A stretch of 64,000 bases of DNA from Candidatus Anderseniibacteriota bacterium (lineage in GTDB: Bacteria; Patescibacteriota; Andersenbacteria; UBA10190): assembly GCA_016197005.1 (NCBI GenBank), contig JACPWO010000001.1:346544-410543 (forward strand), in the 5' to 3' direction. Of the stretch, positions 15,428 to 41,486 are shown piece after piece (position 1 is the stretch's first letter; every line of letters begins with the position of its first letter). A model generated the notes under the pieces. It did no database searches. It saw only the letters and a list, made by a program, of their open reading frames with translations, and was not told the DNA's origin. The position numbers and the translations under genes are program-made.

Positions 15428-15456
15428 AGAGAACGATGATCGGTCGGCCTCTCGAA

Positions 15457-15735: not shown

Positions 15736-15742
15736 AATACTT

Positions 15743-18698: not shown

Positions 18699-18716
18699 GC
18701 CCTAAATGCTGGCCGG

Positions 18717-18737: not shown

Positions 18738-18819
18738 TCAATAACTAGCGTTTTTACAGGGAAGCTGATACTGTGAGCTTACAAAAACGAGTTACCAACA
18801 GCTTCATTGAAGCACAACA

Positions 18820-19488: not shown

Positions 19489-19574
19489 GCTTGCTGAATC
19501 TTGGAGTTAAAATCCGCCTATGCCCGGGAGGGTACAGGTGGATTTGGGTGTGCCCAACGAAAGCGTTACTATGA

Positions 19575-20687: not shown

Positions 20688-20715
20688 ATAGCCACACATA
20701 CGCCGTCGATCCCCT

Positions 20716-20752
20716 AAAACTGCTCCTCCATACTAGGAGCAGTTTTATTTTT
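20716..20752 (+). terminator. Rho-independent terminator
   Basis: aaaactgctcct-ccatact-aggagcagtttt followed by atttttaa: a 12-bp stem and 7-nt loop with a T-tract. Confidence 0.5.
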
Positions 20753-20764
20753 AATTACAAACCT

Positions 20765-22069: not shown

Positions 22070-22811
22070 ATCTGGGGATGTTTTTCGGTTGGGTGCGCAC
22101 CTGTTGGGATGTGGCGATGCCCAGGATAAGGTCTTTGTAGATAGGCTGCTTGGTAAAGAAAAGATTAGCCTGGTACTTTGTGACCCGCCCTACGGCGTGG
22201 CGTATGTAGAAAATAAAAAAGGGTTTAATCCGAAGGGTAAAGAACACCGCGTCATCGTGAACGACCATGCACAAAGCGAGAGTGACTACCGGCATTTCAC
22301 ATACCAGTGGCTCGAAACAACCAAGACCCACCTTGCCCGCAAGAATTCACTCTACATTTTTAATTCGGACAAGATGCTCTTCGCCCTGCGCGACGGTATG
22401 CAAGATGCCGGAGTAAAGTTCGCGCAGTTATTGGTGTGGATTAAAAACCACGCCGTGGTCGGCCGGATGGACTATCTCCCCCAGCACGAATTGATTGCAT
22501 ATGGCTGGTATGGGACGCACGCTTTCCACAAAGCCAAGGATAAGAGCGTGCTGGTCTATCCGAAACCCAGCAAGAGCACGCTTCACCCGACCATGAAGCC
22601 AGTGGGGTTACTGCGTCGCCTCATTCTGAATAGCTCGAAGATTGGTGACGTAGTATACGACCCCTTTTTGGGATCAGGTAGCACGCTCCTGGCCTGTGAA
22701 CAGACGAAACGCGTCTGCTTTGGAATCGAGCTTGATCCGCACTACTGCCAAACCATCATGGATCGGTTTGAAAAACTCACGGGCATTACGCCCAAGAAAA
22801 TTAATCCTTAA
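22050..22811 (+). CDS. DNA methyltransferase, beta class (DPPY)
   Basis: VLCDPPYGVAY (motif IV) precedes DPFLGSGSTLLACEQ (motif I). It overlaps the upstream MTase by 20 nt. Confidence 0.8.
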   Translation: MPKKSIKSGDVFRLGAHLLGCGDAQDKVFVDRLLGKEKISLVLCDPPYGVAYVENKKGFNPKGKEHRVIVNDHAQSESDYRHFTYQWLETTKTHLARKNSLYIFNSDKMLFALRDGMQDAGVKFAQLLVWIKNHAVVGRMDYLPQHELIAYGWYGTHAFHKAKDKSVLVYPKPSKSTLHPTMKPVGLLRRLILNSSKIGDVVYDPFLGSGSTLLACEQTKRVCFGIELDPHYCQTIMDRFEKLTGITPKKINP

Positions 22812-22820
22812 AGCATCTGT

Positions 22821-23291
22821 ATGGAAAAGGTAGTCAGTAAAAACAAACAGGAGAAGCCGCCGGGCGCGGTCGAAGTCCGGCAGTCGAAACAAAAAGAAAT
22901 GTTCATCGAGCAGCTTAAGAAAACGCCTATCGTTCAGGTAGTGTGTGAGAAAATCGGCATCACTCGCACGACCTACTACCGGTGGCACAAAGCTGATCGG
23001 GAGTTCGCCGAAGCAGCGGACATGGCCTTGGCTGACGGATCGGGGTTGGTCAATGATTTAGCTGAAAGCCAGCTCATGACCGCTATCCGAGACGGCAACC
23101 TAACAGCCATCATTTTCTGGCTCAAGAATCATCACCGAGCGTATGCCAATCGCGTCGAGCTGTCGTTGCAACAACCGGTGAGCGAGCAACTCACGCCCGA
23201 GCAAGAAGCCGTAGTCAAAAAAGCCTTGGCTCTCGCCTCCCTCACGGAGCCGGAGCAAGAATCTAATTCTTCATCACAAAACCATGAGTAA
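22821..23291 (+). CDS. Putative terminase small subunit / HTH DNA-binding protein
   Basis: GITRTTYYRWHKADREF is an HTH. 156 aa. It lies immediately upstream of the large-terminase gene and overlaps it by 8 nt. Confidence 0.5.
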   Translation: MEKVVSKNKQEKPPGAVEVRQSKQKEMFIEQLKKTPIVQVVCEKIGITRTTYYRWHKADREFAEAADMALADGSGLVNDLAESQLMTAIRDGNLTAIIFWLKNHHRAYANRVELSLQQPVSEQLTPEQEAVVKKALALASLTEPEQESNSSSQNHE

Positions 23292-24750
23292 TAACATTTC
23301 AGACCCTGAAGTCATTCAGGAATTAATGAGTGACCGTACGGCTCGCTTGGCGAGTGCGCGGCAAAGTCACTACCTGTTCTTTCATCTCTATGAGGCTCGG
23401 TACGTCAAACACAAGACGGCGGAGTTCCAAAAGAACCTCTTCCGCATTACCGAGGACCAGAGCATCAAGCATGCGGCTATCGTCGCGTTTCGCGGATCAG
23501 CCAAGTCAACCATCATGACCTTATCGTACCCACTGTGGGCCGTGTTAGGAATTCAGCAAAAGAAATTTGTCTTACTGCTGAGCCAAACCCAAAATCAGGC
23601 ACGTTCTATGCTCATGAACCTGAAGCGAGAAATTGAGACCAATGACCTGCTGCGGGCAGACTTTGGTGCCCTCGAGTACCAAACGGACGAGTGGGGTCGC
23701 GATTCATTGGTCATTAAAAAGCACGGGGCTCGGATTATGGCTGCGTCTACAGAGACCAGTATTCGTGGACTGCGTCACGGAGAGCATCGCCCCGACCTTA
23801 TCATTGCCGACGACGTTGAGGATCAGAACTCTGTTAAGACACGCGAGGGACGCAACAAAACGTATAGCTGGCTCATGGGTGAAGTTATTCCGGCTGGCGA
23901 TGAGGGCACCAGGCTCATCGTGATTGGAAACCTACTCCATGAAGACTCCCTCTTAATGCGTCTCAAACATGATATTGCCGAGGAGAATCTCGACGGCATT
24001 TTCTGTTGGTACCCCTTGGTGGATAGCACTGGCAAAAGCCTGTGGTCAGGGAAGTACCCTGACCAGGCCAGTATCGACCGGCTTCATAAGAAGGTACCCA
24101 GCCGCGTTGATTGGGAGCGGGAGTATATGTTGAAAATTATCGCTACCCAAGAACAGGTCGTGCATCCTTCATGGATTCAGCCGTATAAGGAAATTCCAGT
24201 GGATACCCGACATTATCGGTATACCGCCATTGGTGTTGATTTGGCCATCTCCAAAAGTGATACGGCTGATTTTACCGCTATGGTGGCTGCTAAAGTGTAT
24301 GGCTCAGGTGAAGATATGCGGGTGTACATCTTGCCCCATCCGGTCAATGAGCGGCTGACGTTTCCGGAGCAAGTTGATCGTACCCGACTGTATTCGGATA
24401 CACTCGATAAGGCCTGGCTGTTTATTGAAGAGGTGGGCTACCAAAGCGCCTTAATCCAAGAACTCAAACAGCGGGGTTATACAGCCGAAGGAGTCAAGAC
24501 GCATGGGGCAGACAAGCGGTCGCGCTTGGCGATCGTCACCCACCTAATCCAAAACGGCCAGGTGTTATTCCCCGAGCATGGCTGCGAGGCCCTTATTCAA
24601 CAGCTGGTGGGCTTTGGAGTAGAGAGTCACGATGACCTGGCTGATGCCTTCGCGATCTTGATGCTGAAAGTGATGGAGAAAAATAACTTTAGTACCGGCA
24701 TGACTATCATCTGGTCGGGCGGGAGCGACTGGCTGCATCAAAACTTTTAA
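23284..24750 (+). CDS. Phage terminase large subunit (ATPase plus RNaseH-like nuclease)
   Basis: Walker A-like AIVAFRGSAKST and Walker B LIIADDVED. The C-terminal nuclease region has TAIGVDLAISKSD...HDDLADAF acidic residues. Confidence 0.75.
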   Translation: MSNNISDPEVIQELMSDRTARLASARQSHYLFFHLYEARYVKHKTAEFQKNLFRITEDQSIKHAAIVAFRGSAKSTIMTLSYPLWAVLGIQQKKFVLLLSQTQNQARSMLMNLKREIETNDLLRADFGALEYQTDEWGRDSLVIKKHGARIMAASTETSIRGLRHGEHRPDLIIADDVEDQNSVKTREGRNKTYSWLMGEVIPAGDEGTRLIVIGNLLHEDSLLMRLKHDIAEENLDGIFCWYPLVDSTGKSLWSGKYPDQASIDRLHKKVPSRVDWEREYMLKIIATQEQVVHPSWIQPYKEIPVDTRHYRYTAIGVDLAISKSDTADFTAMVAAKVYGSGEDMRVYILPHPVNERLTFPEQVDRTRLYSDTLDKAWLFIEEVGYQSALIQELKQRGYTAEGVKTHGADKRSRLAIVTHLIQNGQVLFPEHGCEALIQQLVGFGVESHDDLADAFAILMLKVMEKNNFSTGMTIIWSGGSDWLHQNF

Positions 24751-24883
24751 CCCCACTCCCTTTCCTTACACTCTGTGGCCTAATATGCGGCTTTGAGTTA
24801 CCTACAGCTTAGGCGACTTACCAACTGGATATGTGCACAAGGCAGCGGCACTGTGTCCTTACTAAGTCATATAACTAAGAGCC

Positions 24884-26164
24884 ATGCCCCCTACTCAATA
24901 TTGCCTCTACGCCCGGAAGTCCTCCGAGGACGATGAACGACAAGCCTTATCCATCGACTCGCAGATCAAAGAAATGGTGGCCGTCGCGCAACGTGAGAAT
25001 ATTGAGATCGCCGAAATTCGCAGAGAAAGTCATTCGGCCAAGGCTTCGGGGCAACGGCCGGTCTTCAATCAACTGCTCGGCGACATACGCGGCGGCATGT
25101 TCAGCGGCATCGTGGCCTGGGCACCTGACAGGTTGAGTAGGAATGCCGGGGATTTAGGAAGCTTGGTTGATCTGATGGATAGCAAGCACCTGGAAGAAAT
25201 TCGCACCCATGGACAAAAGTTCAGCAACTCACCGAATGAAAAGTTCCTGCTGATGATCTTGTGCAGCCAGGCCAAGCTCGAGAATGACAACCGAGGTATC
25301 AATGTTAAGCGAGGCCTCAAAAACAAAGCCGAGATGGGCGTGCGACCGGGAGTGGCACCACTGGGATATCTGAATGAACGGAGTCCCGATCGTAACAAGG
25401 GGAAAATAATTATCGACCCGATGCGAGCAACGATTATCAAGAACATGTTTCAGCATGTATCTGACTACGGAGCTAGCGGTAGGACACTCCTAAAATGGTT
25501 GAATAGCGAGGCTGGGTTTACTACCCGCAGCGGTAAGCGACTGACGCTGGGCGGCGTCTACAGAACATTACACAATGAGTTCTACTACGGCAGATTTGAG
25601 TACGGCGGGAAGTGGTATGACGGCACCCATGAGCCGCTCATAACTAAAGAGCTATTCGACGAGGTTCAGGAGCAACTAAAAACGGCACCTAAATCCCGAC
25701 CCGGCACGAAAGAGTTCGACTTCACCAAAATGATCCTCTGCGGAGGGTGTGGGTATGGCATTACGGCTGAGGAGAAATTTAAAAAGCGCCGGGATGGTTC
25801 GATCAAGAAGTATGTCTACTACCACTGCTCACGGTTCGACTACACGTGCAAGCAACCCTATGTCCGCGAGGACTTACTTCTCTCTCAGCTATTAACCCTG
25901 ATTGATCGGGTAGACTTAAGCCAGGTGGGAATCAAGAAAAAGTTGGAAGCTGAGATAGAGCGGCTACAAAAGTTCAGTGTTGGTATCCTCGGACATCGGC
26001 AATCAATAGTAGCGCCGAAAGTGGATACAAAAACGTATGCGAAATATGTCCTGCAGGAAGGTGGACGAGAAGAAAAACGAGAACTGCTCGGGTGCCTCAA
26101 GAGCAAACTCTATCTCAAAGATGAAATCTTAACCTTGAGTGAATCGGTAACGGAAAAAGTTTAG
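24884..26164 (+). CDS. Large serine recombinase (integrase)
   Basis: N-terminal catalytic region YCLYARKSSEDDERQALSIDSQ (Ser nucleophile). It also has a recombinase domain and a C-terminal Cys cluster CGGCGY...HC. 426 aa. Confidence 0.8.
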   Translation: MPPTQYCLYARKSSEDDERQALSIDSQIKEMVAVAQRENIEIAEIRRESHSAKASGQRPVFNQLLGDIRGGMFSGIVAWAPDRLSRNAGDLGSLVDLMDSKHLEEIRTHGQKFSNSPNEKFLLMILCSQAKLENDNRGINVKRGLKNKAEMGVRPGVAPLGYLNERSPDRNKGKIIIDPMRATIIKNMFQHVSDYGASGRTLLKWLNSEAGFTTRSGKRLTLGGVYRTLHNEFYYGRFEYGGKWYDGTHEPLITKELFDEVQEQLKTAPKSRPGTKEFDFTKMILCGGCGYGITAEEKFKKRRDGSIKKYVYYHCSRFDYTCKQPYVREDLLLSQLLTLIDRVDLSQVGIKKKLEAEIERLQKFSVGILGHRQSIVAPKVDTKTYAKYVLQEGGREEKRELLGCLKSKLYLKDEILTLSESVTEKV

Positions 26165-28316: not shown

Positions 28317-29882
28317 ATGACGCGATGGAAACTTCCGTCTTTTTTGATCCTCTTCCTTCTACTTCCAGTTGTTGCAGAGGCTGCTCTTATTGATCAAGTA
28401 AATCAAGCTTTCCGCTCTGTATACGGCCGCACCCCGACTACTACCGAATGGCAGTACTGGGCGGGTAGAGTTCAAAATAAAGAAAAAACGACTTACGACG
28501 CGCTCGTGGGCGCTATGTCGTATCAAAAAGGGTCGACGGGAACCGCGGCAACTGTTACCGTTGCCCCCTCCTCTATTGCTGCCTCCAGTGTGTTTAAAAC
28601 GAGTCGCTCAGCTTATCCATCCTCTCATAACCCCAACTTTCTTCCTGAGGGAACACTTGTAAAATCTGCGAGTAAACCCCAAGTATTTTATATTCAAAAT
28701 GGCAATAAAAGTTGGGTGCTCTCAAGCATTCTTGATCGTTGGCTCGGTGAAAACCATTACTATAAACACGACATCATCCTTACCATCTCGGACGCAGACT
28801 TAGCACGGTACACGCAAACAAAGTCGGTAAACCCTATATACATCGGGAAAATCCTTCAACACCCCGCCGGCACACAGTATTTTATAGACGACAAATTGCG
28901 CAAACGAGAAATCTCTCCAAGTGTACGTGCCGCCTTTAAAATTCCCGCCGGTAACTTGTACCCAACATCAAGCGCACACTTAAGTGAATTCCCTACCGGT
29001 CCCGCTATTACGAAGGCAGACAAATATCCTGGTGGCATGATTGTATACACCGGACCCTACCACGGTGGGCGTTTCTGGAAGATAGAAGAGGTTGAAGCCG
29101 GCAAACTTATCAAGCGTCTTTACCTTACCGACTACATCTACGAAGCAGATGCTAACCCTGACGAAAGTCATCGCGCTCCCGCAATAGATGCTATCTTGGC
29201 TCGGCATGAACGCGGCCCAAATATCGAGAGATATCCGGACGGCTGGACAGCTAGTCTGGATGGGAAAATATTCGTTGTTGAAAACGGGAGCCTGAGACAC
29301 GTCGGCTCTCCGGAGATCCTCGCAGCGATGGGGCACAATCCCAAAAATGCACTTTCGGTCTTCCCTGAATTCCTACGAAAATATCCTCGCGGTTATGCCA
29401 TTACCGCCTTCAAAAGTATTGTAGGCAATACGAGTGGTTCCGTTGGCCCAGCTGCTGCGCCAAACACCTCTGTAAACCTCACGAAAGTCCGCCCCGCCAT
29501 TCGCGCTATCATCGGGGACATGAATAACATCTACTACAGCGTATTCGACAAAGACGTAACGGCTGCAGAGAACAAGTTCTGGGTGGACTATATATACAAC
29601 GGTGAAGTGGCAACAAAAGTTGATCTCGTTGCCGCAATGAAGCGCACGAAGACAACTGGCATAAAGCCTGCTCGCACTTCCCGTACCGCCACCTTGTCGG
29701 AATCGAGACTTGAATCTCATTGGTTCCCTTACTTGTTCTACTTCGTTCATCAGAAAGAGGCTTCACAAGAAGATAAAAACTATTGGTATGGCCGAATTCA
29801 AGCTGGTGACCGCGATACAATCGAAGAACTTGGTGGCACTATCCAGTGGATTAAAGACAACTTCGGCGCAACTCGCAAGTAA
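28317..29882 (+). CDS. Secreted hypothetical protein (521 aa) with signal peptide
   Basis: N-terminal MTRWKLPSFLILFLLLPVVAEAA is a signal peptide. No recognised catalytic motif. Confidence 0.5.
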   Translation: MTRWKLPSFLILFLLLPVVAEAALIDQVNQAFRSVYGRTPTTTEWQYWAGRVQNKEKTTYDALVGAMSYQKGSTGTAATVTVAPSSIAASSVFKTSRSAYPSSHNPNFLPEGTLVKSASKPQVFYIQNGNKSWVLSSILDRWLGENHYYKHDIILTISDADLARYTQTKSVNPIYIGKILQHPAGTQYFIDDKLRKREISPSVRAAFKIPAGNLYPTSSAHLSEFPTGPAITKADKYPGGMIVYTGPYHGGRFWKIEEVEAGKLIKRLYLTDYIYEADANPDESHRAPAIDAILARHERGPNIERYPDGWTASLDGKIFVVENGSLRHVGSPEILAAMGHNPKNALSVFPEFLRKYPRGYAITAFKSIVGNTSGSVGPAAAPNTSVNLTKVRPAIRAIIGDMNNIYYSVFDKDVTAAENKFWVDYIYNGEVATKVDLVAAMKRTKTTGIKPARTSRTATLSESRLESHWFPYLFYFVHQKEASQEDKNYWYGRIQAGDRDTIEELGGTIQWIKDNFGATRK

Positions 29883-29992: not shown

Positions 29993-31018
29993 ATGAGACC
30001 GAGAATCGCTGTTTTTTATGGTGGAGAAGCTGCTAACCATGATCTTTCCATGGAAACAGGTACGTGGGTATGTCAGTATGTACCCCGCGGAGAATACGAT
30101 ATTACCCCGATTGAAGTGACGTCTCAAGGTAAATGGAAAGTACCACTCGGCAACCTGCCTCGCAGCGGCTCCGTTACAACAACCTTGAAGCGCCTGTCCG
30201 AAGCAGTGAAACCAGTTATTCCGGCAGAAGGTATCAACCGTCTACTCTCTCGCCCGATTGATGGTGTTGTAACCGTTGTTCGAGGACACGGTGGTGATGA
30301 TGGTGCGCTTCACAGTTTTGGTTCACTTATTAACGCTGCGGTAGCCGGTTCTCCTTTAGCTGCCTGCCAACAAACATCCGATAAATACGCGTTTAATCAG
30401 TCAGTGAGCGACATTGTTAATACCCCATATACTCAGCGTTTTTCTAAAAAAATGTCCGTCGATTCCATTGTGTCGGAAATCCAAGAAGATTTCTTGCCTC
30501 CCCTTTTCCTCAAGCCAGCTACCCAAGAAGGTAGTTTTGGTATTGAGCACGTTGAAAGTCCGCACCAACTCAAAGCAGCAGTGTCGCGTATTGTGACTAC
30601 CAGCGATCTTATTGCTCAAGAAGCTTTGCCTGGTACCGAATACGCAGTATCAGTAGCCCAAGATGAGCGCGGGAAGATCCACACCCTGCCATCAGTGGCA
30701 GTTCATCCAACCAAAGCATCATTTTATGATCATTTAGCAAAACGCCGCGATGGTCGCGTACAACTTCACACCGCCGATCACTCACCTATTACCGAAGAAT
30801 TAGAAGAGATTGCTCAAGAAATATATGAAGAACTAGGATGTCGCGGCGTTGTCACGATGGATTTTGTAGTAAATGGTGATGATATTTCTATTCTTGAAGC
30901 AAATACTGTTCCAACACTTTCCTCACATACCCCTCTGGTACAGCAACTAAAGGCTGGCGGTCTTCACCCCAGTATCTTGCTCGGCAATACAATCCGTCGC
31001 AGTCTCGAAGAACGTTAA
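29993..31018 (+). CDS. ddl: D-alanine--D-alanine ligase-like ATP-grasp enzyme
   Basis: N-terminal RIAVFYGGEAANHDLSMETG resembles Ddl KIAVLFGGRSAEHEVS. C-terminal GCRGVVTMDFVVNGDDISILEANTVPTLS resembles Ddl GCRGWGRVDFML...LEVNTSPGMT. Confidence 0.7.
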   Translation: MRPRIAVFYGGEAANHDLSMETGTWVCQYVPRGEYDITPIEVTSQGKWKVPLGNLPRSGSVTTTLKRLSEAVKPVIPAEGINRLLSRPIDGVVTVVRGHGGDDGALHSFGSLINAAVAGSPLAACQQTSDKYAFNQSVSDIVNTPYTQRFSKKMSVDSIVSEIQEDFLPPLFLKPATQEGSFGIEHVESPHQLKAAVSRIVTTSDLIAQEALPGTEYAVSVAQDERGKIHTLPSVAVHPTKASFYDHLAKRRDGRVQLHTADHSPITEELEEIAQEIYEELGCRGVVTMDFVVNGDDISILEANTVPTLSSHTPLVQQLKAGGLHPSILLGNTIRRSLEER

Positions 31019-31647
31019 GCGTGTACTCGTACACCCCCACGTCGAGGTGTATGAGTAGATGAGGTTTCTCCAGTCAATTTTTCTTTTGCCTTGGCAACAA
31101 TATGTTTGTCAGTGTCGTACTCAAGCATAGTAATCGCGACATCAAGTGGAAACCATCCAGCTTCATAAAAAAATTCTTCTTTCTGTGGTGAGAGTGCTTT
31201 TTGCTGCGTGATCATGAGATAGTAATGAACTGTTTTACGAACAAGGACGCCTTCGGCTTGGAACGAAAACCGCGCTATTCCTAATTGATCTTTTATGGAT
31301 AGATCTTTTAGACCCGTTTCTTCCCCGACTTCTCGCTTTGCCGCGTCTGATATTCGCTCTTTCTTTTCCAATTCAACGTGCCCTTTTGGTAATACCCATA
31401 CTTTCCCCTTGCGATGTTCGGTTTTAAGTAAAGCTGCCACCCACATACCACGTTCTTGGCGCACAGCTAATCCGCCCGCCGACAGTTCGCGGCGGATGGG
31501 ACGACGACCATGAGCTACCTTTTTACGAGTTGGCTTTGGCGGTCGATTAGTTCGGTTGAGAGGCCGGCGGCTTCGTGTTTTGAGGTGCCGGATTGGGGGT
31601 GGGGGTGGTTGGTGTGGCATTAGGTGGTACGGGTTCACCGTTGGCAA
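31015..31647 (-). CDS. NUDIX hydrolase with basic proline-rich N-terminal extension
   Basis: Nudix box LPKGHVELEKKERISDAAKREVGEETGL. The N-terminal 45 aa are Pro/Arg-rich and overlap the 3' end of the VanW gene in another frame. The true start is possibly downstream. Confidence 0.7.
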   Translation of the reverse strand: MPTVNPYHLMPHQPPPPPIRHLKTRSRRPLNRTNRPPKPTRKKVAHGRRPIRRELSAGGLAVRQERGMWVAALLKTEHRKGKVWVLPKGHVELEKKERISDAAKREVGEETGLKDLSIKDQLGIARFSFQAEGVLVRKTVHYYLMITQQKALSPQKEEFFYEAGWFPLDVAITMLEYDTDKHIVAKAKEKLTGETSSTHTPRRGGVRVHA

Positions 31648-33328
31648 CTAGGACCTTCGGGAACAATTTAGGAGATTTATAATTACTGTAAAATGTATCC
31701 TCGCGCAGCACTTGTCCGTCTTTAGTAACGACCTGCGTTAGCGTCGCTTTCACGGCGCCATCAGGCTGTCGGTTATACGGAGTTGGTCCTGCTATTTCTA
31801 CATCTCGCCCATCATCCGTGCCCCAGAAATCGAAGAGGAGTCTTGTTCCTATGATTCTGGTCTGAACCAGGATATATCCGGGCGTGTTATTGAGGAAACG
31901 TAAATCAGTATACGGAGGGTAGATGGTCGCGTCAAACCCAGGTGTGCCATAGTACGACACAGCGTAGGAATGATTACGACGTTGAGTTATTTCCAGTCCA
32001 GAGTTCAGGGCAGCTCTGAAAGCCGTGGTCGATACTTGGCAGAGTCCCCCACCAAACTCAGGGACAGTAACGTTACTCTTAATAACGAGCTCCGGCTTAA
32101 ATCCGGCTTCGCCTGTTACCGGGCCCAAGTATTTAAGAAAAGAAAATTCTTCTCCGGGAGATATGAGTAGTCCATTATATTTCCCTGCCCCTACTCGAAT
32201 ATTGTGAACACGATTAGCTGGAGAGCCAGCAAAATTAGATTCGCCTTGGGCTAGCAGTGTACGAATACCCAACCGCTCCATATCCGCCACACTGGTAATA
32301 TCAGGTTCAGTGACTGTAACCGCGAGTGGAGAGCGAGGTTCATGCTTCACCAAAGCCTCTTCTACTGTTTTTATGGTGAATGCCAGGTCAACTTCTTGTC
32401 CGCGTTGTGGTTCAGCAAACTGCTGTACGGCTACAGGACCGCTGCCCCCTTCTTGTACTTCAAAACGAGCATCTACCGCTGCTTGGTTCACTTCCGGTGC
32501 AATGGTGTTTTCGAGATAGGCAGTGAGCTCAGCTTCATCAAACGCCACTCCCAAAATCTTATTAACAGCATTTCCCGGGTCCGTTTGGGGAACAAACGTC
32601 AGCATACGACGAACCGAGACCGGTTTAATGACCATCTCTGAATCCTCAAACGTCAACACAAACCCACCAATTAACAGCTGTTGGGCAAATGCACGAGCAC
32701 TTTCTACTTCCTCATCCTGAATATCTGCCGCGGCAGATATAATAGTGAGATCAATCGGACGATCAGTTCCGGCTTTTGCTTTAAGCTCTTCGGCTAAAGA
32801 AATAACATCAATGCGCTCCCCCGGAGCACTCTTCTTAAGGGCGAGGCCAAGACCCGTCGTAACGATAAGAGAGGCGTCTTGTGGCAGTTGCAACCGTTGC
32901 CCAAATCGTTTGTGCACGGTGTCGTAAAGAACGGTGTCTTCAACCGTAACTACTGGCGAGATAGGACTTCTTCCCAGCGATTGCAAAAGTGAAATCGAAA
33001 CTGCTTTTTGTTGTGTTTTTTCAAAATCTAAACTCGCTCCCAGTTCAGCTAACGTAAATATTTGAGATTCTCCTTCGAATAGCAGCGTCACCGTACGATT
33101 CTGGAGTTCCTTATCGTATGCAGCCAGTAGACCTCTGGTATCACTGGCCGAAGCTGCTCCTAGGGCTACTTCCCCCAATGTTACGAGCGGTAATATTCGG
33201 CCATGCATAACAAGTGGCAGGCCGGCCATACCGACTCCCGCTACCACAGCGGCAGTAAGCGCACTTAAGAGTATTTCATGCACGTTCATAGTGTTTTCCC
33301 ATGATGGCACACCGTTAGCTTTCAGCAA
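31547..33328 (-). CDS. VanW-family protein with Pro/Thr-rich C-terminal tail
   Basis: GGGLCQVSTTAFRAALNSGLEITQRRNHSYAVSYY matches the VanW core (GGGVCQVSTTLYNAAL..GLEIVERHNHS). There is an N-terminal TM helix. The C-terminus is PVPPNATPTTPTPNPAPQNTKPP. Confidence 0.75.
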   Translation of the reverse strand: MLKANGVPSWENTMNVHEILLSALTAAVVAGVGMAGLPLVMHGRILPLVTLGEVALGAASASDTRGLLAAYDKELQNRTVTLLFEGESQIFTLAELGASLDFEKTQQKAVSISLLQSLGRSPISPVVTVEDTVLYDTVHKRFGQRLQLPQDASLIVTTGLGLALKKSAPGERIDVISLAEELKAKAGTDRPIDLTIISAAADIQDEEVESARAFAQQLLIGGFVLTFEDSEMVIKPVSVRRMLTFVPQTDPGNAVNKILGVAFDEAELTAYLENTIAPEVNQAAVDARFEVQEGGSGPVAVQQFAEPQRGQEVDLAFTIKTVEEALVKHEPRSPLAVTVTEPDITSVADMERLGIRTLLAQGESNFAGSPANRVHNIRVGAGKYNGLLISPGEEFSFLKYLGPVTGEAGFKPELVIKSNVTVPEFGGGLCQVSTTAFRAALNSGLEITQRRNHSYAVSYYGTPGFDATIYPPYTDLRFLNNTPGYILVQTRIIGTRLLFDFWGTDDGRDVEIAGPTPYNRQPDGAVKATLTQVVTKDGQVLREDTFYSNYKSPKLFPKVLVANGEPVPPNATPTTPTPNPAPQNTKPPASQPN

Positions 33329-34658
33329 GGTTTCCTCGCCCCAGCTGAGCGGCTTGAATAGTAACCTCTGCCTTCTGCCCTGCTCGGAGACTCTCGCTGC
33401 TTCCCGCCGTCGGCAGAAGCATAGAAAAGGTGCTTCCCATGCCTTCCCCCGAACTGTCTACCTGTACTTCCCCGTGGTGCTCTTTTACAATTTGGCGCGC
33501 CACGTAGAGCCCGAGTCCGGTACCCTCAGTGTTAAACCGAGAGGCGCCACCCACCCGCATAAATTTATTAAACAGATGCGCCATATCCTGCTGCTTTATC
33601 CCCTTCCCGGTATCTTTAACTGCAAAGCTAATGTGACGGCCCACTTGTTTCACTCGCACGTCTATTCTCCCGGAAGAGGTGTACTTAATAGCGTTATCAA
33701 TGAAGTTAAGCATTACCTGACGAATACGTTCACGATCAGCTACTACCGGATGAACTGGCTCTTTTGGTTCATGAAATTCTAGTTTGAGTTCCTTGTGCAT
33801 GGCATTCGGAAGTAAATCGGCAACTATTTCTTTACTCATTTCTGGCAAATCCACCATTTCCAAGTTGAGTTCCAGTCGACCGCTCTCAATACGGGAAATA
33901 TCAAGAAGATTTTTAATAAGATCAATAAGACGAGTCGCACTTTTGCCGAGAATCTCGAGGATGGGACGCTGTTTATCAGGTACCGCCCCGTAGTCCCCTT
34001 CCCGCAGCATCGAAATATATCCACGCAGTGCGGTTAAGGGAGTATATAACTGATGACTGGCAATGCTTAAAAATTCGCTCTTCGCTCTGTCTAAGTTCTT
34101 GAGCTGAATACTGGTGCGAGAAAGCTCGTTCATTTTTTCTTCAAGTTCAAGGCGAAGAGAAGCAGTTTCTGCTTGAGATTTCTGGTAGAGATAGGAGCGG
34201 TACAAAGCGGTAGCGACAGATGGCGCCAATTCTTGTAAGAAACTAGCTGCCCCGCGCCCTATTTTTGTCGTGGCTGCTTGATCAAGCAGCAATAACCCAA
34301 CCAATTGACCACGCACAACAAGAGGAATTAAGGCAGTTACCTGGAGCCAATCAATAGCCTCTCGCACTACGGGCGGGGTAGAACGACTCAACCTGCTCTT
34401 GAGCAATGGAATTGGGTGAGACCGGATATATACAGCTAGGGGATGCTGTGAAGCTACTGAAAGCGCCAAATTTCCCGCATTAAACCCTCCGGCCACAACA
34501 AATGCATCGCGCTGATCATTCCACATAAGCACGACTGCCTTACGACAGGCTGCTGCCTCCGCCATTATTTCAAAGACAGTGTCCAGGGCTTCTCCCCACT
34601 CAATTGTCTCGCTGAGCACATCTTTAATGCGTTCAAGTTTTCGTGAAGTCCTCTGCAT
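33315..34658 (-). CDS. Sensor histidine kinase, soluble, GAF-like plus HisKA plus HATPase_c
   Basis: H-box SIASHQLYTPLTALRGY and G-boxes DTGKGI...GTGLGLYVARQIV. Paralog of 14021..15427 and 34662..36152. Confidence 0.8.
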   Translation of the reverse strand: MQRTSRKLERIKDVLSETIEWGEALDTVFEIMAEAAACRKAVVLMWNDQRDAFVVAGGFNAGNLALSVASQHPLAVYIRSHPIPLLKSRLSRSTPPVVREAIDWLQVTALIPLVVRGQLVGLLLLDQAATTKIGRGAASFLQELAPSVATALYRSYLYQKSQAETASLRLELEEKMNELSRTSIQLKNLDRAKSEFLSIASHQLYTPLTALRGYISMLREGDYGAVPDKQRPILEILGKSATRLIDLIKNLLDISRIESGRLELNLEMVDLPEMSKEIVADLLPNAMHKELKLEFHEPKEPVHPVVADRERIRQVMLNFIDNAIKYTSSGRIDVRVKQVGRHISFAVKDTGKGIKQQDMAHLFNKFMRVGGASRFNTEGTGLGLYVARQIVKEHHGEVQVDSSGEGMGSTFSMLLPTAGSSESLRAGQKAEVTIQAAQLGRGNLAES

Positions 34659-34661
34659 ATA

Positions 34662-36152
34662 TTACTTTTCGCTTTCGGCTGCCTTAATTTCTATCTCTCG
34701 CTTATCTCCCACCTTTAGACTGTCAGGTGTTCCTTCAGCCGGAAGAATGAGAGTAAAGGTACTACCCTTTCCTTCTCCAGGACTATCTGCCTTTACGTCT
34801 CCTTTGTGCTCACGAACGATTTGTTCAGCTACATACAATCCCAACCCAGTGCCTTCAGTATGGAACCGAGAAGCGCCCCCTACCCGACTGAATTTGTGGA
34901 ACAGCTTAGGAAGGTCATCTTTACTAATACCCTTACCAGTATCCTGAACAGCAAATACTATTTTCCCTTGATCATTTTTTACCGAAACATCTATCCGACC
35001 TTTCTCGGTGTACTTGATGGAGTTATCAATAAAATTAAGAAGGATTTGTCGAATACGCTCGCGATCGACCACAACGTTAGTACTTCCTGTAGTAGTAGGA
35101 TGAAATTCAAGCTTAAGGCCCTTCTGGACGGCATTGGGTAATAGGTCTCGCACTAATTCTTGTGCCATATCAGCCAAACTTGTCGATTGTAGGTTGAGTT
35201 CAAACTTACCGCGCTCAATACGAGAAATGTCGAGGAGGCCTTTAATAAGACTAATGAGACGCTTAGCACTTTGATCCAAGATACCAAGTACCTTCATTTG
35301 TCCCTCTGGTACCTTGCCAAAGTCTCCCTCTTGCAACATGGAAACATATCCACGCAGTGCCGTGAGAGGGGTGTACAACTGATGACTGGCAACACTTAAG
35401 AACTCGCTTTTTGCTTTATCTAAATCCTTGAGCTGCTGATTGGCTGATGCCAATTCAGCTGAAGTTTCTTGTAAGTCTACGTACAAGTCAGTTTTATACA
35501 TCGCCAACGCAACGAGGCCAATAATGCCCGTTACTGCTTCTTGTTCGTAGCGGGAAAGGTTGCGCAGTTGTCGACTCGAAGAAAGAGTTAATACTCCGAG
35601 CGTTTTACCACCGTAACGAAGCGGATACAACATCGTGTGCTTTACCTCTTCCACATCGGGTGACTGATCAGCAGCGGCAAGGGCAGTAATAAGTTCAGCC
35701 GGATATACGAGCTGGGAATCATCAGCGAAGAGTCGTTTCGTTCCTTGCAGAATCTCTGTAGAAACAAGTCGTTGCGTAAGTGGCACGACGAGCTTCTTCA
35801 TGTCTATTTTCTGGAGCACGGATGTAATCCATGCTACCGAAGATCCCATACCCACCCACTGGAGTGCTTGGCCATCCTCACTCGTAATGGCAATTGAAGC
35901 CACATCATATCCAAGGGCAATGGCGATAGCTCCTGTCATTTTCTTCGCTAAGTCCTCTATTTTAGCTGCCTCGAGTGACAGCTCATCAAGCTGACGCAGC
36001 AAAGCCAGTGTTTTGTTTCTAACAGCAAGTTCTGCGTTCTGCTTATACAACTCCTGAGTAATCCGAGAAGTTTCATCGTGAAAAACTGCATCGTTAGAAG
36101 CATTCACTTTTTTCCTACTCAATACATTCTTTAACTTCCCTCCTAAAGTCAT
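34662..36152 (-). CDS. Sensor histidine kinase, soluble, GAF-like plus HisKA plus HATPase_c
   Basis: H-box SVASHQLYTPLTALRGY and G-box GTGLGLYVAEQIV. The N-terminal YKQNAELAVRNKTLALLRQLDE is shared with the 14021 paralog. Confidence 0.8.
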   Translation of the reverse strand: MTLGGKLKNVLSRKKVNASNDAVFHDETSRITQELYKQNAELAVRNKTLALLRQLDELSLEAAKIEDLAKKMTGAIAIALGYDVASIAITSEDGQALQWVGMGSSVAWITSVLQKIDMKKLVVPLTQRLVSTEILQGTKRLFADDSQLVYPAELITALAAADQSPDVEEVKHTMLYPLRYGGKTLGVLTLSSSRQLRNLSRYEQEAVTGIIGLVALAMYKTDLYVDLQETSAELASANQQLKDLDKAKSEFLSVASHQLYTPLTALRGYVSMLQEGDFGKVPEGQMKVLGILDQSAKRLISLIKGLLDISRIERGKFELNLQSTSLADMAQELVRDLLPNAVQKGLKLEFHPTTTGSTNVVVDRERIRQILLNFIDNSIKYTEKGRIDVSVKNDQGKIVFAVQDTGKGISKDDLPKLFHKFSRVGGASRFHTEGTGLGLYVAEQIVREHKGDVKADSPGEGKGSTFTLILPAEGTPDSLKVGDKREIEIKAAESEK

Positions 36153-36219
36153 ACGTATATATTACCAGACAACAAAGCACAGCCGAACGGCTGTGCTGAT
36201 GCATAGAAACAAACTCAGA

Positions 36220-36498
36220 TTATTTCAGAACTTCGGGGATCTGATCCTGAGGAAATTGAGACAGCAGGGGACGAACTGCGTCGCGACATACTTCGCGAGA
36301 GGCGCGGCCGAAAAGTCGTTCGTATTGAGCAACCAGTTTTTCCAGTACGTCTCGTGGACTACCTTCAATACTGGCGACATGACCGGTTACATCCACGCGT
36401 AGCCCAGTAACTTTTCCAGCCTGTTCCCAGGCCACCGGTCCCATGATCAGTTCTTGTTCCTTTATTATCTTGACTGCAATTTGATCAAGTGCATTCAT
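36220..36498 (-). CDS. Conserved 92-aa hypothetical protein; paralog of 15457..15735
   Basis: Same length and collinear identity with the 15457 copy. It sits between the membrane protein and the HK. Confidence 0.5.
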   Translation of the reverse strand: MNALDQIAVKIIKEQELIMGPVAWEQAGKVTGLRVDVTGHVASIEGSPRDVLEKLVAQYERLFGRASREVCRDAVRPLLSQFPQDQIPEVLK

Positions 36499-36504
36499 GG
36501 ATGT

Positions 36505-37317
36505 TTATACCTCTACCTCTTTTAACTTGTAGAACCCAAGGACGCCTAAGCTGAGAAGAAACGTGCCTGTTGTCAGTAACAAATCTCCCCAATTAGCGTT
36601 GTAATAGGTACCCACCGTCGTAGCGTATGAGAAAGCAGTATCGCCTAAGAACATAACGCCGAGACCTAACAAGATAGCCACAATATCTCCAGTGTGCCGT
36701 CCGCCCATGTATTGGAAAGAGAGTCCCGAGATAATAACCGCAACCGCGAGACTTAGGAAATCACCCAGAGGATACGCAATATCTAAAACTATTTTCAAAG
36801 GAGTTTCTCCTTCTGGTACCAGGACACCACCACGCGCCACAACTACCAGAAGATAATAAGAGGCAGCAAGTATAGCAAAAGGAGCGATTGTCACGAAAAC
36901 TTTAGCGGTTTTACTTCGGAGACCATACTTTGCTCCCGTTACCTTAGATAAATAAAAGGCGCCTAATCCATAAAAGAAAATACTAGGAGCGAATCCAAGG
37001 TCAGCGACCGAAGGATATGGAGCAGGCACACCCAAAAAGAAGTTGTAGTAAGACCAGATCATCTCTCCTGCACCCCAAAACAGAATACCTAGACCCACAA
37101 AGAAAACTGCCTTACCAATAGCGGTTTTAACTCCACCCCACCTCTTGGCACTGAAGATCGCGACAATACCAGCAATCAAAGGAATCAATCCAAAGAGGAA
37201 TGAGTAGAAGTAATTGTAAAAACCTTCAGTAGTATTAGTGAAGAAGAGCGCCACCCAAAAAATCAGTAGAAAAATGTAGAATGCGAGGCTGATTTTTTGA
37301 GGAGTATTTAGGTTCAT
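36505..37317 (-). CDS. Polytopic membrane protein; paralog of 15743..16582
   Basis: Shared motifs KRWGGVKTAIGKAVFF and PYPSVADLGFAPSIFFYG. About 7-8 TM. Confidence 0.55.
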   Translation of the reverse strand: MNLNTPQKISLAFYIFLLIFWVALFFTNTTEGFYNYFYSFLFGLIPLIAGIVAIFSAKRWGGVKTAIGKAVFFVGLGILFWGAGEMIWSYYNFFLGVPAPYPSVADLGFAPSIFFYGLGAFYLSKVTGAKYGLRSKTAKVFVTIAPFAILAASYYLLVVVARGGVLVPEGETPLKIVLDIAYPLGDFLSLAVAVIISGLSFQYMGGRHTGDIVAILLGLGVMFLGDTAFSYATTVGTYYNANWGDLLLTTGTFLLSLGVLGFYKLKEVEV

Positions 37318-37359
37318 AGACCAGTGTTGCTCGTATTATATTCCTTCTATTTTTGCGGG

Positions 37360-38499
37360 TCAAACAAAGTAAACAGCGGGGCGTGGAAACCCATTAAAAG
37401 GACTAGTTGCTACCAGACTATATGCTCCGGCGTCGTGGAATATAAGTTTGTCCCCTACTTCTAGGTCTTGCGGAAGCAATGCTTCACGAGTAATAACATC
37501 AGGAGAATCTCCGGTTGGTCCAGCGAGGGCAAATAACATTTCTCCAGAATCGTATGAGTGCCGCATACTTGTTACTTTGTATCGAGTTGATCCTTGATAC
37601 GCCATGGCTTCAAAAAGCGCACTGTATACGCCTGCATCCAGGAAGAGCCAGGTAGCGCCTTGTCGCTCTACCCTCCCGATAACACTGGTGACTAACACTG
37701 CCGTGGTCGCCACTATCCCCCGCCCCGGCTCCAGTATGAGTTTTGGCTGGTATGGTAATTTCTCGTACTGCGGAAGAGTGTGCTCGGCGATCTCTTCCAG
37801 GGTAAGAGCAGTTTCTGTCGTGCCGTACGCGCACGGGTATCCACCCCCAATATTCAAAACATCTAGTTTAATATCGAGCTTATGCAAGTGCTCAATGGCC
37901 GGCTGAATACTTGTTATAGCATTAGCCCAACTCATCGGATTACTTGCCTGAGAACCCACGTGAAAACTAATCCCGATTGGATCCATTCCTCGCTCTTTTG
38001 CCCGTTGTAGTAGTGGAACAATGTTATCTTTGCTTGTTCCAAACTTTTCTGAAAAACGAAAAACACTGCCGGTGTCGTTGACCGCTACCCGGACATATAC
38101 TTTGGAGCCTGGCGCGACCGAGGCAATCTTTTCTAGTTCGGGGAGAGAGTCAAACGCGAAACGATCAACTCCATACTCAAAAAATTCTTTAATATGTGAA
38201 ATTGGTTTCACAGATGTGCCATAAATGATCTTATCAGCCGGCACACCAATTTTCTTAAGCATGTTGAGCTCGTATACGGAGGCAACCTCGAATCCACTCC
38301 CAGCTTCAAATAAGGTCTGTAGTACTTCCGGCTCAGCATTCGCCTTCATTGCATACTGAATTAAGGCACTGGGAAAGTATTTTTTGAAGTCCTTTAAATT
38401 GTCGGTGAGTCTCTTTTTTGAAAAAACGAAAAAGGGTGTCTCGTGCGTTAAGCTCTCGAGAAATTCAGTGTTAAATTCTGTGTGAGAAGCAGTAGACAT
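37360..38499 (-). CDS. PLP-dependent decarboxylase, fold III (Orn/DAP/Arg/carboxynorspermidine decarboxylase family)
   Basis: ALIQYAMKANAEPEVLQTLFEAGSGFEVASVYE is the PLP-lysine region. NIGGGYP and EPGRGIVA are also present. 379 aa, closest in size to CANSDC or LysA-like enzymes. Confidence 0.7.
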   Translation of the reverse strand: MSTASHTEFNTEFLESLTHETPFFVFSKKRLTDNLKDFKKYFPSALIQYAMKANAEPEVLQTLFEAGSGFEVASVYELNMLKKIGVPADKIIYGTSVKPISHIKEFFEYGVDRFAFDSLPELEKIASVAPGSKVYVRVAVNDTGSVFRFSEKFGTSKDNIVPLLQRAKERGMDPIGISFHVGSQASNPMSWANAITSIQPAIEHLHKLDIKLDVLNIGGGYPCAYGTTETALTLEEIAEHTLPQYEKLPYQPKLILEPGRGIVATTAVLVTSVIGRVERQGATWLFLDAGVYSALFEAMAYQGSTRYKVTSMRHSYDSGEMLFALAGPTGDSPDVITREALLPQDLEVGDKLIFHDAGAYSLVATSPFNGFPRPAVYFV

Positions 38500-38520: not shown

Positions 38521-39417
38521 TTATAGCACGGACAACATCATAATTCCAACAATAATGATGAGACTTCCGACTGTTTGAATAAGGGTTATCTTTTCTTTTA
38601 AGAACATTCTTGCCAGGATAATTGTCGGCAAAGAAAATGCTCCACTCAGAAGGGCGACGACGCTGGTACGTGGCGTTGCACTGTACCCTAAGCTAATTGC
38701 TAAATAGGCGAAAGTTTCGCATACACCAATTAAGATCAAGAATTTCCAGATAGAAGATTTCACCGCAAACAGGTCAACTCGCTGCACGGCCGATGCTACC
38801 AAAATGGCGAATGTCATAAATGAGTACATAAAGAATGTATACGACAGCCAATCCGCTCCCCCGATAAAAACATCCCATGATAATGTCCACAGACCAGCCA
38901 TGAGCGTGGCAAACGCTACTTCTTTAAAGCCAGGGATACGAGTAAACCTAAGGCGCCGAGAAAAGAATGCCTTAATATCAATGTTCACTAGCAAAATTCC
39001 AATAAAAATAGTTACTAGCCCTACTAAGAGATATCCACCAATTATTTCTCCAAAGAAGACAATGGATAAGACAGCAGTTATACCCGAAAAAGCCGCAAAT
39101 ACTGGACTGAGCAGTCCTACCTGCCCCTTACCAAATCCCTTGTAGACCAAAAAGTAGATAAGAGCCTGCATGACGCCAAAAATGATCATGAAAATCCATG
39201 TTTGTGGATTTTCTGGTAGCGCAATTTCTTTACCTCGTACTTCCATCTGATAAAAAACCATGGTCAGAAGCGTAAGCGTTCCAAATACGTGTCCCCACGC
39301 TAAGCTAGCTATATCCCCAATTTGATCAATTGTTTTTTTCGCAAAAAAGTCAGCAAACCCCCAACCAAGCATTCCTCCGAGTCCGGCAAGTATGGCAACA
39401 AGTAGTTCTGTTTGCAT
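38521..39417 (-). CDS. EamA/DMT-family transporter (10 TM)
   Basis: Two repeated 5-TM halves and a hydrophobic profile typical of EamA. Confidence 0.6.
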   Translation of the reverse strand: MQTELLVAILAGLGGMLGWGFADFFAKKTIDQIGDIASLAWGHVFGTLTLLTMVFYQMEVRGKEIALPENPQTWIFMIIFGVMQALIYFLVYKGFGKGQVGLLSPVFAAFSGITAVLSIVFFGEIIGGYLLVGLVTIFIGILLVNIDIKAFFSRRLRFTRIPGFKEVAFATLMAGLWTLSWDVFIGGADWLSYTFFMYSFMTFAILVASAVQRVDLFAVKSSIWKFLILIGVCETFAYLAISLGYSATPRTSVVALLSGAFSLPTIILARMFLKEKITLIQTVGSLIIIVGIMMLSVL

Positions 39418-39573: not shown

Positions 39574-39888
39574 TTACGTGCTTGGTATTTCTTTAATCCA
39601 TTTATCATGAAGTGCGCGCTCTAAGTCAACTCCCATCACATCCGCAGCTACAATTGCCATACCAACAACATCAGCAAGCTCTTGAGCAACTTTCTTCGCT
39701 GATTGATCAGGAGGAAGTAGTTTTTCCGGCCGACTCTTTTTTTCCTGAGTTAATATTGCTTCAGCAAATTCTCCTATTTCTTCAACTAGTTTTAGCAACA
39801 CAAAATCCTTATCAATGATGACATTATAGCGTTCACCATAATCTTGGGCATTTGCTATAATCTTCTTTTGTAAATCGTTAAATTCCAT
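39574..39888 (-). CDS. MazG-like nucleotide pyrophosphohydrolase domain protein
   Basis: LVEEIGEFAEAI...ELADVVGMA is the EExxE...D MazG-type motif. 104 aa. Confidence 0.6.
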   Translation of the reverse strand: MEFNDLQKKIIANAQDYGERYNVIIDKDFVLLKLVEEIGEFAEAILTQEKKSRPEKLLPPDQSAKKVAQELADVVGMAIVAADVMGVDLERALHDKWIKEIPST

Positions 39889-40754: not shown

Positions 40755-41486
40755 TTAATCCCCAAGATATGCCGCAATAACACGTTTGTCCTTCAAAACA
40801 TCTTCGGGTTTACCCTCAGCCAATAAAGTCCCTGCATTCATTACAATTACGCGATCACAAAGTCCTCGGATTAACTCTATGTCATGCTCAATAAGTACAA
40901 CGGTCTTATCTTGTATTTTAAGGTCGTAAATTATATCAATGACAATTTTTCTCATCTCTGGAAAGAGACCCGCAAATGGTTCATCAAAAAAATAAATTTC
41001 TGATTTCATTGCAATCGCTCGCGCAATCTCTAGAAGTTTTCTTTGCCCGTATGAAAGTCTTTCAACATTATCATCTTTCTTTTCCCACAGATTTACTCCT
41101 TTTAAAATGGCTTCCGCTTCCGAAATGTGATGTATTTTGTGTCGTTCGAATAGTGCTGAAAAAACATTACGTTCAGTGAGTACGACAAGAATATTATCGA
41201 GGACACTCATTTGTTCAAAAAGTCGCACCGCTTGAAATGTGCGTGTTATGCCATAAGCATGTATGTTAAATGGTTTTACTTTTTCTCGTTTTGTTTCTGA
41301 AACAATTACAGAACCTTTTTCAAAAGGAATTACTCCCGTAAGAATGTTAACGAGAGTAGTTTTGCCAGATCCATTAGGCCCAATAATTCCCGTTATATTT
41401 CCATCTCTGATCTCAATAGTTAAATCGTCTACGGCTTTTATACCGTTAAATATCTTTGTTAAATCTTTGGCTCGGACTTGTGACAT
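40755..41486 (-). CDS. livG: Branched-chain amino acid ABC transporter ATP-binding protein
   Basis: Walker A GPNGSGKTT, signature LSYGQRKLL and Walker B IYFFDEPFAG. Confidence 0.8.
   Translation of the reverse strand: MSQVRAKDLTKIFNGIKAVDDLTIEIRDGNITGIIGPNGSGKTTLVNILTGVIPFEKGSVIVSETKREKVKPFNIHAYGITRTFQAVRLFEQMSVLDNILVVLTERNVFSALFERHKIHHISEAEAILKGVNLWEKKDDNVERLSYGQRKLLEIARAIAMKSEIYFFDEPFAGLFPEMRKIVIDIIYDLKIQDKTVVLIEHDIELIRGLCDRVIVMNAGTLLAEGKPEDVLKDKRVIAAYLGD

Follow-up and report, generated by a model that had tools for sequence, protein, structure and literature searches.

A predicted split sensor kinase and its cell-wall gene neighbours in an Andersenbacteria genome

In several bacterial signalling systems, among them MCP-CheW-CheA, H-NOX-HnoK, NosP-NahK and LiaF-LiaS, a membrane receptor or a stand-alone sensor controls a separate kinase in trans. 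Patescibacteria (the Candidate Phyla Radiation, CPR) have tiny genomes with few regulators, and how they sense their surroundings or their hosts is hardly understood. Here we describe a locus in a 64-kb stretch of contig JACPWO010000001.1 from the metagenome-assembled genome of a Candidatus Anderseniibacteriota bacterium (the window, which covers about a ninth of the approximately 576-kb contig). Its genes encode a membrane protein (mem270), a small protein (p92), two histidine kinases (HK496 and HK447), a VanW-family protein and a NUDIX hydrolase, and they face ddl (Table 1). The most interesting result is an uncharacterised three-part sensor kinase that occurs across Patescibacteria together with a natural series of gene fusions. 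We judge it rather probable that the region holds two adjacent functional units, and that the first of these, mem270 with p92, forms a split three-part sensor kinase with HK496.

The arrangement of this module provides the first line of evidence. The gene order mem, p92, HK recurs across 47 loci recovered from other genomes (loci are labelled L and proteins P below), and mem precedes p92 wherever the contig permits the order to be read. These loci come from Andersen-, Doudna-, Vogel-, Nomura-, Kerfeld-, Zambryskii-, Uhr- and Colwellbacteria, at least eight named candidate lineages, and because the order recurs so widely it cannot be put down to chance. In about three quarters of the informative loci a same-strand kinase with GAF, HisKA and HATPase domains lies within approximately 300 nt, often at 0–45 nt. 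Natural fusions are also seen. Three proteins (P0193, P0238 and P0250) join mem to p92, with p92 as the C-terminal domain, and P0349 joins mem to a PAS domain and a histidine kinase, while P0326 carries mem, p92, helix, GAF, HisKA and HATPase_c on a single chain, with the domains in the order of the genes. Since such fusions exist we regard the functional link between mem, p92 and the kinase as settled, and the original prediction that these three genes constitute a sensory module is borne out by synteny and fusions alike.

An N-terminal motif, ELYKxNAELAVRNKTLALLR, is common to HK496, to HK468 (the kinase of a paralogous module, copy 1, in the same window), to L011_491 and L051_457, and to the fusion P0326, in which it comes directly after the p92 domain; HK447 does not have it. 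Judged by these sequences, mem270, p92 and HK496 appear to be one split sensor kinase made up of a receptor, a juxtamembrane adaptor and a soluble kinase, and because a full fusion exists (P0326) the three parts demonstrably correspond to a single-chain kinase that has been split. We propose that mem270 is the input (sensor) part of this kinase and p92 its adaptor or juxtamembrane domain. In the mechanism that we envisage, mem270, an eight-helix protein with its conserved residues facing outwards, would perceive a signal at the membrane or cell-wall side, and p92, as a detached cytoplasmic juxtamembrane domain of mem270, would relay that signal to the N-terminal helix and GAF domain of the soluble kinase, as the fusions suggest. 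HK496 would then autophosphorylate on His257 and pass the phosphate to a response regulator encoded elsewhere. We found no CPR kinase module of this kind described in the literature. The three-gene kinase is a concrete candidate for a core signalling device of Patescibacteria, because it is highly conserved in the loci studied here and two of its parts belong to no described family, and the series from split to fused genes is a natural experiment on how a membrane sensor communicates with its kinase.

Neither mem270, nor mem279 (from copy 1), nor p92 has a sequence match in Pfam, NCBIfam or the PDB, even at E ≤ 10. The AlphaFold2 (AF2) model of mem270 has eight helices (predicted local distance difference test, pLDDT, 79.7), and the distribution of Lys and Arg residues gives an N-in/C-in topology with both termini cytoplasmic and puts the invariant motifs PYPSxAD, DxxYPLGD and YYNAxxGD on the outer side; the sole invariant Lys of the family, K139, is in a cytoplasmic loop. 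Conservation of mem270 is comparable to that of p92, and its profile retrieves 3089 cluster representatives. Foldseek against the PDB gave weak, generic matches to receptors with seven transmembrane (TM) helices (TM-score 0.35–0.47, root-mean-square deviation 8–10 Å), which we do not take as homology, and hhalign gives a weak hint of an internal 4+4 TM duplication (E = 0.009, probability 4%). The idea that mem270 is a microbial rhodopsin or heliorhodopsin, prompted by PMC8612252, was rejected, as the protein has eight helices, the last of them contain no conserved Lys, and Pfam gives no match. For p92 we recovered 577 homologues, those listed being from Patescibacteria; the best 120 of the 577 have 63–79% identity and no Pfam domain, and the alignment contains 30 invariant columns. 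The AF2 model of p92 (pLDDT 90.6) has as its best Foldseek match the N-terminal half of H-NOX, with an E-value of 0.5 and a TM-score of 0.53. We also rejected p92 as an H-NOX- or V4R-like sensor: it has 92 residues against approximately 185 for that domain, the fold match is weak, and there is no HNOB or V4R match in Pfam at E ≤ 10.

Other arrangements of these families were seen. The mem domain is also fused to NB-ARC/STAND nucleoside triphosphatases (NTPases) and to a TrmB-type winged helix, and mem and p92 together are joined to a MazG-like domain (proteins P0264, P0302, P0243 and P0242). In the window, the third gene upstream of mem270 is a stand-alone MazG-like gene (39574..39888). Several modules are found next to one another in one Andersenbacteria genome (L049, 831..3296 and 7966..10258). 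In one of these copies mem and p92 are broken by frameshifts, so that it is apparently decaying, and the same locus has two tandem mem-p92 pairs with no kinase directly following.

HK496 and HK447 each score 63 bits against HisKA (PF00512) and approximately 100 bits against HATPase_c (PF02518), with NFIDN, DTGKGI, LFxKF and GTGLGL present in both; H-box and catalytic-domain motifs are intact in these two kinases and in HK468. The phospho-accepting His257 of HK496 lies in SHQLYTPLT and is an invariant alignment column. Between HK496 and HK447 the DHp is 75% identical and the catalytic domain 70%, against 16% for the GAF region, and HK447 lacks the N-terminal helix. Orthologues of HK447 were found solely in L004 and L011 among the loci examined, and the L011 protein carries hydrophobic stretches at its N terminus, interpreted as two TM helices, of which HK447 has no equivalent. 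From these comparisons HK447 appears to be a lineage-specific duplicate of the HK496 transmitter that is combined with a different sensor. Because the transmitters are alike and the sensors differ, it seems probable that HK447 feeds the same regulator as HK496, or heterodimerises with it.

Two further features of this kinase family were noted. A conserved C-terminal tail, SLKVGxKxEVxIKAAE, follows the ATPase domain in HK496 (34662..34750), HK447 (33315..33400) and the orthologues in L011 and L053, and is missing from HK468, L051 and P0326. In L053 a pair of genes (3102..4258) comes just before the HK496 orthologue; one encodes a 261-aa membrane protein containing a DHp-like segment without the His (IRQPLSFI) and the other a single-domain REC protein of 122 aa (REC122), which is a candidate partner regulator and has no detectable counterpart in the window.

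The genes of the locus probably do not form one operon, as far as can be judged from the sequence and its conservation. Strand and spacing are insufficient to define an operon here, because minus-strand genes run on upstream of mem270 to approximately 47.9 kb with no strand switch. Within this run, two units are inferred from a promoter upstream of mem270, a hairpin after p92, an extended -10 element at HK496 and the insertions found in relatives. The mem270 promoter matches the consensus at 11 of 12 positions and is kept in eight of nine orthologous decarboxylase/mem270 spacers (the window's own contig copy, L001, included), being absent in L010. The stop codon of the decarboxylase gene falls within its -35 hexamer, and the conserved pattern is a -35-like TGAC or TTGAC, overlapping the decarboxylase stop in most loci, followed by TAtAAT. 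The hairpin in the p92/HK496 spacer has a predicted energy of -20.9 kcal/mol (z = -3.1 against shuffled sequence), and a classical hairpin with a T run occupies the corresponding place after p92 in L012 and in L013. In L008, L010, L011, L018 and L050, 2–4 kb of unrelated genes separate p92 from the kinase. An Rfam scan of 29–40 kb gave no match, the hairpin included, which rules out a riboswitch or known RNA in the spacers.

No Shine-Dalgarno sequence precedes the HK496 ATG, and the element TGnTAtA(a/c)T is found 6–7 nt before the kinase ATG in 11 of the 12 orthologous loci, irrespective of what lies upstream. The position of this extended -10 suggests that the HK496 transcript is leaderless. 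More generally, an extended -10 (TGnTAnnnT) ends 6–7 nt before the start codon in 5 of 66 window genes, compared with a background of 0.5%; these genes include 15743..16582 (mem279), 28317..29882, 34662..36152 (HK496) and 40755..41486, and the element before mem279, the first gene of copy 1, is TGCTAGTAT and ends 6 nt before the ATG. As a separate observation, this frequency points to leaderless transcripts being common at operon starts in this genome. Unit A would thus comprise mem270 and p92, transcribed from the conserved sigma-70-type promoter with the hairpin at its end, and unit B would comprise HK496, HK447, VanW and NUDIX, with a predicted start at the extended -10 and an end against the convergent ddl.

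Table 1. Features of the locus, its upstream neighbours and the paralogous module (window positions)
Feature	Position	Strand	Description
mem270	36505..37317	-	270 aa, 8-TM membrane protein, uncharacterised family; no Pfam match
p92	36220..36498	-	92 aa, cytoplasmic, uncharacterised family; no Pfam match
HK496	34662..36152	-	Soluble kinase: N-terminal helix, GAF + HisKA + HATPase_c (Pfam)
HK447	33315..34658	-	Second kinase: GAF_3 + HisKA + HATPase_c (Pfam)
VanW protein	31547..33328	-	Hydrophobic N-terminal anchor, PG_binding_4 + VanW (Pfam)
NUDIX hydrolase	31015..31647 as open reading frame; 31015..31620 from conserved start	-	Pfam NUDIX
ddl	29993..31018	+	Divergent D-Ala-D-Ala ligase, convergent with NUDIX
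LysA-like PLP (pyridoxal phosphate) decarboxylase	37360..38499	-	Conserved upstream neighbour of mem270-type modules
EamA transporter	38521..39417	-	Conserved upstream neighbour of mem270-type modules
Copy 1: mem279, p92', HK468, REC136, REC158	13107..16582	-	Paralogous module, compact and archetypal; gaps 7, 29, 9, 17 nt
Sigma-70-type promoter TTGACC-17-TATAAT	37335..37363	-	In the 42-nt decarboxylase/mem270 spacer; 11/12 consensus positions
Terminator-like hairpin	36176..36197	-	In the 67-nt p92/HK496 spacer; 9-bp stem, GTTC loop, then TTGTTGT
Extended -10 element TGGTAATAT	36159..36167	-	Ends 6 nt before the HK496 ATG; predicted promoter

The six minus-strand open reading frames (ORFs) called in the original prediction are present at the coordinates given there, and Pfam confirms their domains. 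The p92 protein is 100% identical to NCBI HYZ61_02025, and the window stretch is also present on a 60.7-kb Logan contig. Several junctions were revised. The ddl and NUDIX genes, earlier described as meeting head to head, are convergent and lie tail to tail, their stop codons overlapping in a TTAA at 31015..31018. A 14-nt overlap between HK447 and VanW stands if VanW starts at the TTG at 33328, and is replaced by a 25-nt spacer if it starts at ATG 33289, the choice of the gene caller. For NUDIX, the start with the best support from conservation among orthologues is ATG 31620, giving a protein of 201 aa and a 74-nt overlap with the 3' end of VanW. That the kinases, VanW and NUDIX are closely packed holds true, and about a dozen Andersenbacteria-type loci retain the order HK, VanW, NUDIX and convergent ddl, which is conserved in that clade only, with an HK/VanW junction of -4 to +50 nt in most orthologous loci.

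The interpretation of VanW itself has changed. Its association with vancomycin and cell-wall stress, to which the earlier annotation appealed, is outdated, since work from 2024 established that the VanW domain is the catalytic domain of L,D-transpeptidases and has a Cys-His-Asp triad, and three of seven VanW proteins tested from outside C. difficile were active (PMC11348318). The protein described here matches VanW (PF04294) with 135 bits against a cutoff of 27, over residues 372–502 of the 593-aa ORF. In 580-aa numbering, C417 (in GGGLCQVSTT), H440 (RRNHSYAV) and D453 (PGFDATIYP) are invariant in 7- and 9-sequence ortholog alignments, the triad having been matched to Ldt4 (C286) and Ldt5 by motif and not by residue-level alignment. 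The hydrophobic N-terminal segment and PG_binding_4 domain fit an extracytoplasmic, peptidoglycan-binding location, and on these features we predict that the VanW protein is a membrane-anchored L,D-transpeptidase. We found no solved structure with a VanW domain. A predicted VanW-type L,D-transpeptidase that lies by ddl in a CPR lineage, and that would share a promoter with kinases, is a lead on how these cells build or remodel their walls. The NUDIX protein scores 46.7 bits against PF00293 (cutoff 21.1) and has a Nudix box, REVGEETGL, with upstream Gly-to-Glu spacing two residues longer than in the textbook box; an N-terminal extension, Pro-rich and basic, is kept in five of the seven aligned sequences. 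For ddl the best NCBIfam match is TIGR01205, at 130.7 bits and below cutoff, with the D-Ala-D-Lac and D-Ala-D-Ser models lower still.

Beyond the closest relatives this gene association dissolves. In an unbiased scan seeded with VanW, NUDIX and ddl are retained only beside the closest VanW orthologues, and at 74 more distant VanW loci none of the HK, NUDIX or ddl neighbours is seen. L052 has VanW, NUDIX and ddl, but the 1.6 kb that precede VanW contain no kinase; kinase and VanW are 3 kb apart in L054, and L016, L023, L039 and L051 have the sensory module without VanW. The linkage of HK to VanW is lineage-specific, and either shared expression within a compact genome or a genuine functional connection may explain it. 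We propose that VanW and NUDIX are not components of the signalling system and that they are enzymes with cell-wall or housekeeping roles whose genes are expressed along with those of the kinases.

Four other explanations of the locus deserve to be weighed. The original prediction placed all six genes in a single operon, with HK496, HK447 and HK468 each phosphorylating the copy-1 REC proteins in a branched relay on envelope or peptidoglycan state. The six genes do share a strand with short spacers, the p92/kinase interval of L007 and of L016 contains no terminator, and the residues just after the phospho-accepting His are nearly identical in the three kinases (SHQLYTPLTALRGY vs SHQLRTPLTSLRGF), but a single six-gene transcript is unlikely given the conserved promoter at the HK496 ATG, the hairpin after p92 and the unrelated genes inserted there in relatives. 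As predicted, the locus has no REC gene (none in 29–40 kb), and no REC domain is detectable in the 64-kb window outside copy 1 (13107..14011, beside HK468), where REC136 and REC158 are single-domain proteins without an output domain. This favours a shared relay, although the claim that the only REC proteins are those of copy 1 is valid for the window and no further, because the window is a small part of the contig. HK468 resembles HK496 in its GAF region (39%) and shared helix, but its DHp has 42–43% identity with the DHp of HK496 and of HK447, with a strongly different second helix; because of this divergence (DHp 43% to HK496), a sharing of the copy-1 REC proteins by HK496 and HK447 is unsupported. 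The REC genes directly follow HK468 in copy 1 and in the orthologous L019, which fits a dedicated pair, and L053 has a different REC gene just upstream of its HK496 orthologue. HK468 more likely serves its own adjacent REC proteins; a branched relay onto them is possible and somewhat disfavoured, its sensing of peptidoglycan is speculation, and the scheme as a whole appears quite unlikely. A related idea is that the module senses cell-wall status and that the kinases act through a regulator to adjust the expression or activity of VanW, NUDIX and ddl, in a van-like or WalK-like envelope circuit. The conserved gene order with its tight HK/VanW junction, the outward-facing conserved residues of mem270 and the presence nearby of other peptidoglycan-related genes (the LysA-like decarboxylase and an Asp/Glu racemase) are consistent with such a circuit, but the window proteins that were scanned include no DNA-binding regulator, the REC proteins are single-domain, the kinases would be co-transcribed with their supposed targets, unlike the usual regulatory wiring, and the linkage is confined to one clade, being broken in L016, L023, L039, L051, L052 and the 74 distant VanW loci. 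We regard this circuit as unlikely, if less so than some of the alternatives.

A different proposal makes mem270 a transporter or membrane enzyme that works with the EamA exporter and the LysA-like decarboxylase, its activity or substrate being monitored by p92 and the kinase. The order EamA, decarboxylase, mem270, p92 is more widely conserved than the VanW linkage, polyamine genes flank copy 1, and the polar and aromatic invariant motifs PYPSxAD and DxxYPLGD could line a substrate site. However, a conserved promoter separates the decarboxylase gene from mem270, modules of the copy-1 type have another upstream neighbour (LPG_synthase_C), mem is fused to kinases, NB-ARC NTPases and TrmB-type helix-turn-helix (HTH) domains in the way that input domains are, and mem270 has no similarity to any transporter family, all of which makes a transporter or enzyme rather improbable. 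The co-occurrence of a kinase, a VanW-family gene and a ddl-family ligase, with partial matches to the VanS and VanW models, might also bring to mind a glycopeptide (van-type) resistance cluster. This was rejected and is highly improbable: scores with all the NCBIfam van models fall far short of the cutoffs (vanW-gen 57.5 against 365, VanS 133–141 against 400), the D-Ala-D-Lac and D-Ala-D-Ser ligase models score below the D-Ala-D-Ala model, VanR, VanH, VanX and VanY were not detected with Pfam or NCBIfam among the scanned neighbours, and ddl is convergent and keeps its position in relatives, as expected for a conserved core gene.

The reading that we prefer, of two units and a split kinase, has points against it too. 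The p92 fold has no significant structural match, and the sensing role of mem270 is deduced solely from kinase fusions, while the mem domain is fused to NB-ARC NTPases and TrmB-type HTH domains as well and mem270 is closely linked to the decarboxylase and EamA genes. The assignment of HK496, as opposed to HK447 or a kinase elsewhere, as the partner of mem270 and p92 follows from the shared helix motif and ancestral adjacency. As to the units, the promoter and terminator calls derive from consensus and conservation in an uncultured organism, the T tract of the hairpin (TTGTTGT) is weak, and some read-through may occur, as the spacer from p92 to the kinase has no hairpin in L007 and L016. Conserved co-transcription of HK and VanW could, moreover, mean a regulatory link instead of mere co-expression.

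The genes that flank the two modules may bear on the nature of the signal. EamA, decarboxylase, mem270 and p92 follow one another in L005, L007, L010, L011, L012, L016, L023 and L051 (the last with a mem-p92 fusion), and this order is partly visible in L039, where the contig starts inside the decarboxylase gene. Copy 1 is flanked by genes for a pyruvoyl arginine decarboxylase (12606..13076, +) and an S-adenosylmethionine (AdoMet) decarboxylase (18071..18430, -). Because decarboxylase and EamA genes and polyamine genes flank the modules, the signal could relate to amino acids or polyamines. The next gene upstream of copy 1 encodes an LPG_synthase_C protein (DUF2156, MprF C-terminal-like; 16605..17534, -), and a protein of approximately 300 aa occupies the same position before copy-1-type modules in L017, L019, L024, L027, L028, L030, L040, L048 and others, a position that suggests a fourth conserved partner tied to membrane lipids. 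Downstream of copy 1, past the arginine decarboxylase gene, are two tandem genes for AMP-binding (adenylate-forming) enzymes (10095..12568, -). Between the two modules lies a mobile-element-like island (approximately 18480..26164) with a G+C content of 0.46–0.51, compared with about 0.40–0.43 in its flanks, that encodes a Cro/C1 HTH protein, a DUF4352 protein, a ParB-N6/N4 methylase, a second methylase, small and large terminase-like proteins and a large serine recombinase.

Set beside known systems, the locus shares features with several of them. With the vanB and vanG clusters it has in common a kinase, a VanW-family gene and a ddl-family ligase, but unlike those clusters it has no VanR, VanH, VanX or VanY detected among the scanned neighbours, and its ddl is convergent and resembles D-Ala-D-Ala ligases. 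The VanW protein has the same architecture as Ldt4 and Ldt5 of C. difficile, an N-terminal membrane anchor followed by PG_binding_4 and VanW (PMC11348318); unlike these, the gene for the Patescibacteria protein runs in the same direction as histidine kinase genes and a NUDIX gene and probably shares a transcript with them. HK496, HK447 and HK468 resemble class I (HisKA-type) kinases with GAF input in having GAF, HisKA and HATPase_c domains with intact motifs, but differ in that two separate genes, both from uncharacterised families, supply the membrane input and that the HK496 locus contains no REC gene. A further parallel is to receptor-adaptor-kinase systems. Although mem and p92 have no sequence relation and no significant fold relation to MCP, CheW, H-NOX or NosP, p92 occupies the place that a small coupling protein has in such systems. 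We therefore put forward, tentatively, that mem and p92 are an undescribed receptor-adaptor pair which, together with the helix-GAF kinase, may be the main membrane signalling device of Patescibacteria, with a logic like that of MCP-CheW-CheA and with forms ranging from three genes to one chain, and that in Andersenbacteria the kinase arm may have been re-wired, through a leaderless promoter, into a transcript with a VanW-type L,D-transpeptidase. If this is true, such re-wiring would couple an outside signal to cell-wall cross-linking in host-attached organisms.

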